This document shows, in pieces, positions 27,848-51,754 of a stretch of 64,000 bases of DNA. Where the stretch lies: positions 1 through 64,000 of the forward strand of contig JAPEUD010000023.1 in assembly GCA_026026165.1 (NCBI GenBank), in the 5' to 3' direction. The translations under genes were made by a program, and so were the position numbers. Position 1 is the stretch's first letter. Each line of letters begins with the position of its first letter. Under the pieces are notes generated by a model, which was given only the letters and a program-made list of their open reading frames with translations, searched no databases and was not told where the DNA came from. The stretch comes from Sarea resinae. Lineage: Eukaryota.

Positions 27848-30084
27848 CTTGGTAGATATGATTGAGAATTGAGTAGAATGATGTATAGGGGGCTCCTGTG
27901 GAAAGGTAGCGTTCATGAAATTGTTACTTTCATTGGAAAGACATGCGACAATTCATCTTGGACAGTTGTTGTTATCGCTGGAAATGCCATTATCTTTGCC
28001 AACGTGCATCAGCGTCTACTACGTAGTACTCCGGAGAGCCACAGGGACAGGGTTTAGAGCTGTCGTAATTTGTACCTGATGATATCTCTCGGATGAAGCA
28101 AAGACTAAGGTATTTTGTACATACTCGTGGTTTACGCAAGGAACATCCCGCGGCGAAGCGAGTCGCCTACTCCGTACTGCTATCGAACATCCAGGGGTAA
28201 TTTTCTTCCTCTCTTCCTCTTTTCTTCACCACTACTCTCCAGCAACTAACAACTTTAAGTGACCTGCTCTTCTCACCGAAGATTTCTTTTCACCATCTAT
28301 GCATGCCTTGTCGAGAATCATCAATTGTTGTAAGTCTGACTGTTCTCTTTTCACACTCCGTCCTCGTCAACCAGCAAGCAAAACCTATGATGATACACCA
28401 ATATAAGCATAGTTCAACTGAAGGTCTCTGACCGCTGAACGAAAAAATCTACCATCGTCTTTCGCTCCTATCTGATTGCTATGTTTGCGATTTGGCTCTT
28501 AAGCACTCTCAGCTCTATCATTCTGTCCGTGAACATCTGCTAACGGCGATTTGAGTTAGGTACTATCGAATGTGCTTGCAACCTGGGGACATACTTCGCG
28601 TTCAAGACGGGCTTTACCTGGCTGCCCATCTGTTTGGGTCCCGGTTCGGGACGAGAAGTGCCATACGCGCGGTAGAGAGCGATGCTAACGCTGATATCTT
28701 CGGGTTGCCATTGTACCTTCAAAACAATTAATTATCATTTGTCTGTTGCTGCTATTCTCAAAGATCGCCGGCTTTGAATGCGTGCTAGAGGTCCGCGCGC
28801 CTCTTCGCCAAAGCTCGAGTGTACAAGGTACTAGTATGTGTATTTTCCAAACCTTGGTAATCTCGTACTCTACTCGGAGTAGAGTTAAAATGTCCTCCCA
28901 TCACAAAATCATATACAAGGTACCTGGCTCGGAGATACTGGCAGTACGGCCCGGTGAGTGACAGCGTTTCCAGAGCCTCGAGCGTACCCAGGCTTCAAAA
29001 ATGCTTACTTCTCGGCACGTGCGTCTTTTGTGAGAGCCGACTGGTAAGGCGCTCCTTCCCGCTGCTGGTAATCGATCCAACGACTCGGCCGAAGGGCTGA
29101 GTGACCTGCGGTCGCAAGTTTCGCGCCTCAGACCGTGATCAAGATATTGGATTAGTACGCAGTACTCCGTACCCCGGATACAGTCGTCCGAACGCAGTAA
29201 GTAGTGAGGAACAAGGAATCTGCACCTTCGGCCTTCAGCCACCGAGGCTCAAGCCATCATTTACAAAACCTTACTCTAACATTGGCGATGATTGTTTTGG
29301 AGATGATGACGAGATGTTCTTGCGGCCGCAGGGGCTATCACTTCAACGATGACGAATACCACGGAGACCGGACTTACTCTACTGCAGTATCGTACTCGTA
29401 GCACTCTCGTTTTACATGCTTGCCACTTACCGATGGCCACTGTGATTTGTTGTTGATCCTTGGTCGTTTTCCCCTCGTGTCACATATATTGCTCATGCTC
29501 TCATGCCACTTCCTGCACGTTGGCATCAGAAGTCACACACTATTCCCATTCGCGGCATCCGCCACGTCGTGTCAAATTTCAGCCGATTAGTCTTTCGGGA
29601 TGGCCATCCAACCAAGTCCCTATCGAGTAACACGACTTGCACGAACAGGCCTCTCGTGCCTCTGCTAATGCACTGTCAACACACTGCTGCGCGAACCGGA
29701 TGGCAATCATCATGTTCCCGCCGATATTATTCGACGCCGAGATTGTTCAAGGCCCACAGCCCCCCAGCCACCTAAGTGAGGTTGAGCGACAGAGCGTGAG
29801 CCAAGTCATTTTTCTCGGTCCCCACCTGACGAAGTTGCCAATGTTCCGCAGCATTATTATTGTTCTTATTATTACCGCAGAGCAGACGCATGATCATTAG
29901 AGTATACCTCGAGCCTTAGGCCCGCCCCCTTCTTCCTTCTTCTAACGTCAAGCATTTCACTGTGCGTTGGCACATTTCACCTCCCTACTTACACAGACAA
30001 TACGGCACATTTCAAACTGAATCTGAGCTGGCCATCGACCGTTTTCTTTCTCAATCTGCCCCAGCCAACAGACATAAACCCAGG

Positions 30085-49903: not shown

Positions 49904-51754
49904 ATGTCTAGCGTCGTCCCTTCGGCGACACGACACGCCTCGAGACTCTGCTCTCGTCGGCTACCCTCCTGCAACTCTTTGACCAGAAGTCCGACTCATC
50001 TACGAGTATCATCGGCTCCGCTTAGTGCATCGCGAATTGCCCACAGACGAACGTATGTGTCCGAGTCCAAGAAGGACAGTGCTCAGGTCAATGTCGAGAC
50101 TGCCATCAAGGCCGATCAGAAGGCTTTCCTGTCTCAGACCGGATCGAAGCCTGAGAATGTAAACGTCCAAGGGACTTCAGTGGATGGAGATGCCATGATG
50201 AGTCCGGTAGCAGGTATTGTATCTCCACCCATAATCTGATTGGCCTCATTTGTTGATTACGTTATGCTAGGTATTCTCAAGCAGGCAACGGTCATGGATG
50301 AAGGCGCCCGTCCTATCTATCTGGACATGCAAGCTACCACTCCAACCGACCCTCGTGTTCTTGATGCCATGCTTCCCTTCTTTACTGGCCTATATGGGAA
50401 CCCTCACTCCCGTACGCACGCTTACGGATGGGAAACCGACAAGGCTGTAGAGCTTGCTCGTGCACACGTCGCGAGTCTCATTGGTGCTGATCCTAAAGAG
50501 ATCATTTTCACTAGCGGGGCGACAGAAAGCAACAACATGAGTATAAAGGGCGTGGCAAGGTTCTTTGGCCGATCCGGCAAGAAAAAGCATATCATTACTT
50601 GCCAGACGGAGCATAAATGCGTCCTGGATAGTTGTCGACATCTTCAAGACGAAGGATTCTCGGTGACTTATCTGCCAGTCCAAAGCAATGGGCTTATCAA
50701 GATGGAAGATCTAGAAGCAGCCATTCGACCAGAGACCGCACTTGTCAGTATCATGACCGTAAACAACGAGATTGGTGTAGTCCAGCCGGTTGAGGAGATT
50801 GGCAAATTGTGCCGGTCAAAGAAGGTCTTTTTCCATACCGATGGAGCTCAAGCAGTTGGAAAAATACCCATCGACGTAAATAAGTGGAATGTCGATCTCA
50901 TGTCAATCTCTTCTCACAAAATCTATGGACCGAAGGGTATTGGAGCCTGCTATGTCAGAAGACGCCCGAGAGTCAGAATCGATCCCATCATTAGTGGAGG
51001 AGGGCAAGAAAGGGGATTGCGGAGTGGCACCTTAGCTCCCCCCTTGGTTGTAGGATTTGGGGAAGCCTGTCGGATTGCCAAAGAGGAGATGCCGGTAAGT
51101 TCTATCAGTACACTTTCACAGCTCCAGATGTTTTTATTTTCTTTATGAAGGGATGAAATGCTCTTTTCATGCATGTTTTACTGAGCACTTCAACGCAGTG
51201 CCTGTGTTCTTTTGCCACTTACGCGTCAAAAGGTGCTTGATGACAAGAGCAGGGGTTCTGATCAACTATTAATCCTTCGGCGTCGCTAGAGAAATGCCAA
51301 AGAATGCTGTTGCTAACAATTTCCCATCTAGTATGATACAAAACGCATCTCAGCTTTGTCCCAGCGTCTGTTGAGCGGCCTGCTTTCCCTTGAGCATACC
51401 TCTCTCAATGGAGATAGAGAACGTCACTATCCAGGATGCGTCAACGTTTCTTTCGCTTACGTGGAAGGCGAGTCTTTACTTATGGCACTCAAAGACATTG
51501 CGCTATCTTCAGGAAGTGCGTGCACCTCAGCGTCTCTAGAGCCAAGCTATGTCCTTAGAGCTCTGGGCAGCAGCGATGAGAGCGCTCACAGCAGTATTCG
51601 TTTCGGAATCGGGAGATTCACGACAGAGGGGGAGATTGACTATGTGCTCAAAGCAGTGAAGGAGAGGGTGACGTTCTTGCGGGAGCTTAGCCCGCTATGG
51701 GAGTTGGTCCAAGAAGGGGTCGACTTAGATAGTATCGAATGGAGCCAGCATTGA
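49904..51754 (+). CDS. NFS1: Mitochondrial cysteine desulfurase Nfs1
   Basis: Exons 49904-50213, 50271-51094 and 51332-51754. Arg/Ser-rich presequence, [19 protein letters not shown] (PLP lysine), SSGSACTS (catalytic Cys) and the IEWSQH terminus. Confidence 0.97.
51146..51264 (+). ncRNA. Candidate intronic box C/D snoRNA
   Basis: In the 237-nt NFS1 intron (51095-51331): C-like GGGATGA at 51150-51156, D' CTGA at 51181-51184, an internal hairpin, C' TTGATGA at 51237-51243 and D CTGA at 51258-51261, 70 nt from the 3' splice site. Confidence 0.68.

Follow-up and report, generated by a model that had tools for sequence, protein, structure and literature searches.

The NFS1 gene and its last intron

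The window analyzed here, a stretch of 64,000 nt from the filamentous fungus Sarea resinae, carries on its forward strand a gene for an NFS1-type cysteine desulfurase, the last intron of which contains a candidate box C/D snoRNA. The parts of the host gene that bear on the candidate are listed below, with positions counted along the window and the source of each assignment given at the end of the line.

50271..51094 (+): host exon 2, IscS-subfamily cysteine desulfurase (NFS1-type); Pfam, NCBIfam and RNA contig
51095..51331 (+): last NFS1 intron, 237 nt, GT..AG; RNA contig of run X2
51312..51317 (+): putative branch site GCUAAC, ~50 nt past the 3' end of the candidate; sequence
51332..51754 (+): host exon 3 (last), with the stop codon at its end; NCBIfam IscS and RNA contig

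Exon 2 matches the Pfam Aminotran_5 profile (E 7.6e-78) and corresponds to positions 5-265 of the 406 positions of the NCBIfam IscS equivalog profile, which exon 3 picks up at position 268 and follows to its end (406 of 406). The NFS1 label, which an initial annotation of this DNA had already attached to the host, therefore fits. The boundaries of the intron come from RNA: a near-identical contig from a metatranscriptome (run X2, record 3) spans exons 2 and 3 and omits exactly 237 bases, with the gap falling between 51093/94 and 51331/32 and showing GT..AG ends, so that the intron is 51095-51331 and has precisely the length originally given for it. By its sequence, intron 1 spans 50214-50270 and measures 57 nt; the last intron is about 4 times as long. 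The accompanying statement that most introns here measure 50-70 nt holds for intron 1, the only one on which this length claim was checked. The GCUAAC motif is taken to be a branch-like site on the strength of the branch-site consensus.

In the assembled contigs of run X2, the interior of the intron is without cover; because these are assembled metatranscriptome contigs, they report splicing and are uninformative on small RNA. Two further runs of the same study, X3 and X4, which come from other organisms, contain only short, diverged pieces of the exons and leave the region around 51 kb (50954-51514) uncovered.

A second NFS1-like sequence occurs in the library of run X1. A DNA contig of 170 nt (record 2, low depth, 2.2) matches the end of exon 2 (window 51014-51099) with ~81% identity and departs completely from the window 5 nt into the last NFS1 intron, so this sequence has an intron at the same site with other content.

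Architecture of the candidate snoRNA

The candidate spans 51146-51264 on the forward strand (~119 nt) and consists of the following elements, in order from the 5' end.

51146..51148 (+): 5' half of the terminal stem, UGA; pairs with UCA 51262-64
51150..51156 (+): box C-like GGGAUGA; sequence and layout scan
51157..51180 (+): 5' (D') guide region, 24 nt; sequence
51181..51184 (+): box D' CUGA, perfect; sequence and layout scan
51185..51236 (+): internal hairpin bringing D' and C' together; MFE fold
51185..51190 and 51231..51236 (+): hairpin arms GCACUU and AGGUGC, a 6-bp closing stem; MFE fold
51193..51196 and 51223..51226 (+): hairpin arms ACGC and GCGU; MFE fold
51197..51200 and 51216..51219 (+): hairpin arms AGUG and CACU; sequence
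51238..51243 (+): box C' UGAUGA, perfect; sequence and layout scan
51244..51257 (+): 3' (D) guide, 14-nt spacer; Rfam SNORD94 alignment and duplex energy
51249..51257 (+): 3' guide core GCAGGGGUU; sequence
51258..51261 (+): box D CUGA; sequence and layout scan
51262..51264 (+): 3' half of the terminal stem, UCA; pairs with UGA 51146-48

The C-like box, D', the hairpin, C' and D had been described in this order in the initial annotation, and every one of these motifs is found where it had been placed; the coordinates likewise confirm that 70 nt separate the end of box D from the 3' splice site. A k-turn requires a gap of 3 nt between the stem and the GA of box C, and in the candidate exactly 3 nt (AGG) lie between the terminal stem and this GA. 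The stem itself comprises only 3 bp, with the UCA strand directly following box D, and on the opposite side of the molecule the D' strand runs straight into the stem from which C' leaves. The predicted arrangement of boxes and stems is thus coherent with k-turn geometry, the one departure being a G for U in box C. There, GGGAUGA (51150-56) fits the RUGAUGA consensus at 6 of 7 positions and preserves both GA dinucleotides, with the G replacing the usually invariant U at position 2. Box variants do exist, given that 86% of the C and D boxes reported from N. crassa are canonical.

Within the 24-nt region upstream of D', there is a self-complementary repeat, CAUGCAUG (window 51168-51175).

How readily such a layout arises was assessed with a scan for NGAUGA, CUGA 10-28 nt on, UGAUGA, and CUGA again 10-28 nt on, within a total of 60-160 nt. 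On both strands of the whole window (128 kb of strand), the four-box layout has a single match, which is the candidate. Among 300 dinucleotide shuffles, the bare layout was found in 11, the layout plus a terminal stem of 3 bp or longer in 3, and the layout plus both this stem and a closing stem of 5 bp or longer in 0, and these figures are generous because the criteria of the scan were fixed only after the candidate had been seen. The same scan misses the known snoRNA of the window, Afu_263. A narrower unit, UGAUGA-N5-GCAGGGGYY-CUGA, has 1 match in the window vs 0.01 expected. In terms of fold energy, neither the whole element (z -0.80) nor the internal hairpin (z -0.61) is more stable than its shuffled counterparts; unremarkable fold energies are common in C/D snoRNAs and argue neither way.

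These results bear on the simplest alternative, namely, that the boxes came together by chance, that the intron is long for unrelated reasons and that no stable small RNA is made from it. We consider this unlikely: the full layout is absent from the 300 shuffles and even its loosest form appears in just 11 of them, the intron is 4 times as long as its neighbor, the guide matches that of SNORD94 in register and independently of the box layout (see below), and the known snoRNA of the window sits in a similar intron. What keeps an accidental origin in consideration is the imperfect box C, the terminal stem of 3 bp, the failure of either fold to beat shuffles, and the post hoc choice of the test criteria.

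The known snoRNA, Afu_263 (RF02402; 64.8 bits; 28383-28477, +), is the sole RNA recognized by Rfam in the window. Its host is a putative GTAAGT...CTAAC...AG intron of ~230 nt (28330-28559), in which it starts ~53 nt from the 5' end and leaves 82 nt to the 3' splice site. Afu_263 resembles the candidate in the length of the intron, in the position within it and in the presence of a hairpin after D', and differs from it in having a perfect box C, membership in a recognized family and published 26S rRNA targets, those assigned to the A. fumigatus copy being Am815 and Gm906. Judged by sequence, the NFS1 intron is of the same design as the Afu_263 intron.

The 3' guide and its predicted target in U6

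The guide upstream of box D was claimed in the initial annotation to pair with a motif of U6 snRNA, and the calculated duplex is consistent with this claim, in the right register. With the motif GGCCCCUGC, which is used here as quoted in that annotation and not as read from the U6 of S. resinae, the 3' guide forms a duplex of -16.3 kcal/mol, a value reached by 0.015% of 20,000 random 9-mers. The duplex is short: it consists of 7 Watson-Crick pairs and 1-2 G-U pairs, the latter formed by the last two guide positions (UU), and the pairing does not extend into the other 5 nt of the spacer. Counting back five nucleotides from box D leads to G51253, which lies opposite the third C in the C tract of GGCCCCUGC; under the D+5 rule, this makes the equivalent of human C62 the predicted site, as originally proposed.

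The reported 2'-O-methylation sites of human U6 are A47, A53, G54, C60, C62, C63, A70 and C77, so that methylation of human C62 is found in the literature along with that of C60 and C63, and methylation of C62 is reported to be guided by SNORD94. In S. pombe, the sites reported in a 2023 study are A41, C55, C56, C57 and A64. Because A41 and A64 are offset by 6 from human A47 and A70, C56 of S. pombe corresponds to human C62.

A genuine intronic C/D snoRNA need not have U6 as its target, or its main target; it might act on rRNA or some other RNA, or else be an orphan. The U6 duplex, at just 8-9 bp, is compatible with such a role, the longer 5' guide of 24 nt (51157-51180) may direct methylation elsewhere, and fungal surveys describe guides that are lineage-specific and have multiple targets. 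Nevertheless, we deem it improbable that U6 is not the principal target, given that random 9-mers almost never pair as well with the U6 motif and that the one Rfam family known to guide this U6 site has the same guide core and spacing.

Relationship to SNORD94

The initial annotation had suggested a comparison with Rfam by Infernal, and its outcome is divided. Across 4227 families at E<=10, the intron gave two weak matches, and the only one on the plus strand is indeed SNORD94 (RF00613), but its score of 11.2 bits (E 3.9) is far under the 60-bit gathering score. In this alignment, box C' of the candidate falls on box C of the model, GCAGGGGU falls on the model guide and agrees with the consensus in every column, and the next box follows after 2 nt. 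The guide core GCAGGGGU and the 2-nt spacing to the next box are thus common to SNORD94 and the candidate, and this identity leads to the same C as the predicted target. The initial annotation had named SNORD94 (U94) as the guide for C62, and here the literature and the independently obtained Rfam alignment agree.

SNORD94 is, like the candidate, an intron-hosted box C/D RNA, but what aligns between the two is just the box, the guide and the following box. SNORD94 and the six metagenome loci that align with it over its full length (see below) carry the guide in the C-D' interval, toward the 5' end of the molecule, whereas that of the candidate occupies the C'-D interval, toward the 3' end. The candidate is not a member of the SNORD94 family, because its score is far below the 60-bit threshold; its guide, moreover, is on the C'-D side. 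Recasting the element in the SNORD94 manner, with UGAUGA at 51238 as box C and CUGA at 51258 as D', was rejected: the stretch up to the branch site and the splice site offers neither a D box nor a complementary 3' stem.

The other weak Rfam match, to snoR1 on the minus strand (13.2 bits, E 4.8), lacks proper boxes, is antisense to the host and was discarded.

Fungal guides for U6

In fungi, box C/D guides for U6 methylation have been described for positions other than the tract addressed by the candidate. In S. pombe, snoZ30 is reported to guide methylation of A41 and sno530 that of A64. The latter is similar to the candidate in two respects, namely, a box C that is one nucleotide off the consensus and a short guide, of 12 nt with one non-Watson-Crick pair. 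For C55, C56 and C57 of S. pombe U6, the authors of the 2023 study state that they found no guide, and therefore a fungal guide for the C tract would be new.

Surveys of filamentous fungi give a similar picture. A cDNA screen in A. fumigatus reports 27 C/D snoRNAs, with none assigned to U1, U5 or U6. The N. crassa survey describes one U6 site, Am47, guided by CD11, and the pan-fungal catalogue of 2018, in which this site is renamed U6-62, adds CD_54 as a conserved D' guide for U6-70, which is U6-55 of N. crassa. The two families, snR53/CD_11 and Nc_CD_54/CD_54, are accordingly presented as Pezizomycotina box C/D families with conserved predicted U6 interactions, in both of which the U6 guide is located upstream of D' and points to N. 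crassa U6-47 and U6-55, respectively, not to the C tract. By these descriptions, rather than by their sequences, the two families differ from the candidate in guide placement and predicted target. The main texts of the A. fumigatus, N. crassa and 2018 pan-fungal surveys mention no guide for the C tract, and the papers returned by a literature search include no later report of a guide for C55-C57 and, among those listed and judging by title, none that joins NFS1 introns with snoRNAs.

The candidate could instead be a new copy of a family already present in the fungal catalogues, such as CD_54 (Nc_CD_54), and not a new guide, an explanation that overlaps with that of a real snoRNA directed to a different target. 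According to snoStrip, CD_54 is present in all lineages of Pezizomycotina with a conserved U6 guide, the mean mfe of its conserved U6 interaction is -18.1 kcal/mol, and the N. crassa CD54 RNA, at 125 nt, is close to the 119 nt of the candidate. We nonetheless give this explanation only a slim chance. The conserved U6 guide of CD_54 is described as preceding D' instead of D; in N. crassa, CD54 is recorded as an intergenic RNA; and no Rfam family matches the candidate at threshold. Furthermore, the CD_54 target, N. crassa U6-55, is 8 nt past Am47 and the equivalent of C62 would be 15 nt past it, provided that the numbering runs parallel to that of human U6, as is implied by the homologue column of the N. 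crassa table.

A bolder proposition is that the candidate represents the so far missing guide for 2'-O-methylation of the C tract of the U6 stem-loop in fungi, that is, a functional counterpart of SNORD94 with the guide on the box D side, where it would have arisen either by an exchange of guide halves or independently. We regard this as an attractive possibility, although one whose chances fall slightly short of even.

A model for the maturation and action of the candidate

Overall, we lean, by a small measure, toward the view that the NFS1 intron encodes a box C/D snoRNA that acts like SNORD94 on the C tract of U6. The original interpretation of this locus, a U6-methylation guide in an NFS1 intron, is thereby partly supported, as far as the sequence analysis goes. 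Under this model, once the NFS1 intron has been spliced out and debranched, exonucleases would trim it down to an snoRNA of ~119 nt (51146-51264), halting at the box C/D protein core of Snu13, Nop56, Nop58 and fibrillarin that would assemble on the RNA. Two k-turns would form, that of boxes C and D closed by the 3-bp stem and that of D' and C' by the internal hairpin. The guide upstream of box D would then pair with the C-rich 5' strand of the internal stem-loop of S. resinae U6, and because this pairing would place the third C of CCCC (human C62, S. pombe C56) in the methyltransferase site, that C would become 2'-O-methylated.

The methylations in the stem-loop of U6, the catalytic RNA of the spliceosome, are conserved from fission yeast to humans. 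If the model is correct, one and the same guide can shift between the halves of a box C/D RNA in the course of evolution, and the box-guide-box signature could help to find the guide for C55-C57 of S. pombe. In a filamentous fungus, the candidate raises the questions of whether the tract is methylated, what guides this methylation and whether splicing is affected by loss of the methyl group. If, on the other hand, the candidate is not expressed, the locus is merely a long intron with suggestive motifs.

The guide unit in metagenomes

A search of metagenome contigs for UGAUGA-N4-7-GCAGGGGYY-CUGA yielded at least 121 loci (L001-L121). Among the matches listed, none has NFS1-like flanks and none is similar to the intron beyond the pattern itself; the lack of an NFS1-flanked relative in this set counts in favor of a chance origin of the candidate, although the in-register match to SNORD94, as already noted, counts against it. 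At least 54 of the loci listed have one and the same core, TGATGAAAGTGCAGGGGTCCTGA, and several more resemble them.

Twelve of the loci were compared with Rfam, and six of these (L001, L010, L014, L059, L086 and L099) align over the full length of SNORD94, with scores of 26.6-37.2 bits, which are below the threshold. In all six, the guide comes after box C and before D', and the guide with its spacing is therefore a widespread signature of SNORD94. The SNORD94-like loci look like unannotated homologues of SNORD94 in diverse eukaryotes, as judged from their alignments.

Loci in which TT precedes CTGA (for example, L005, L012 and L065) appear, by eye, to be prokaryotic coding sequence and were set aside as chance matches.

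In two further loci, L028 and L081, which do not reach an E of 0.01 against SNORD94, the unit is located just 3' of exon ends that read, by eye, as a CDC48/p97-type protein, which suggests another, recurrent host gene in other eukaryotes.
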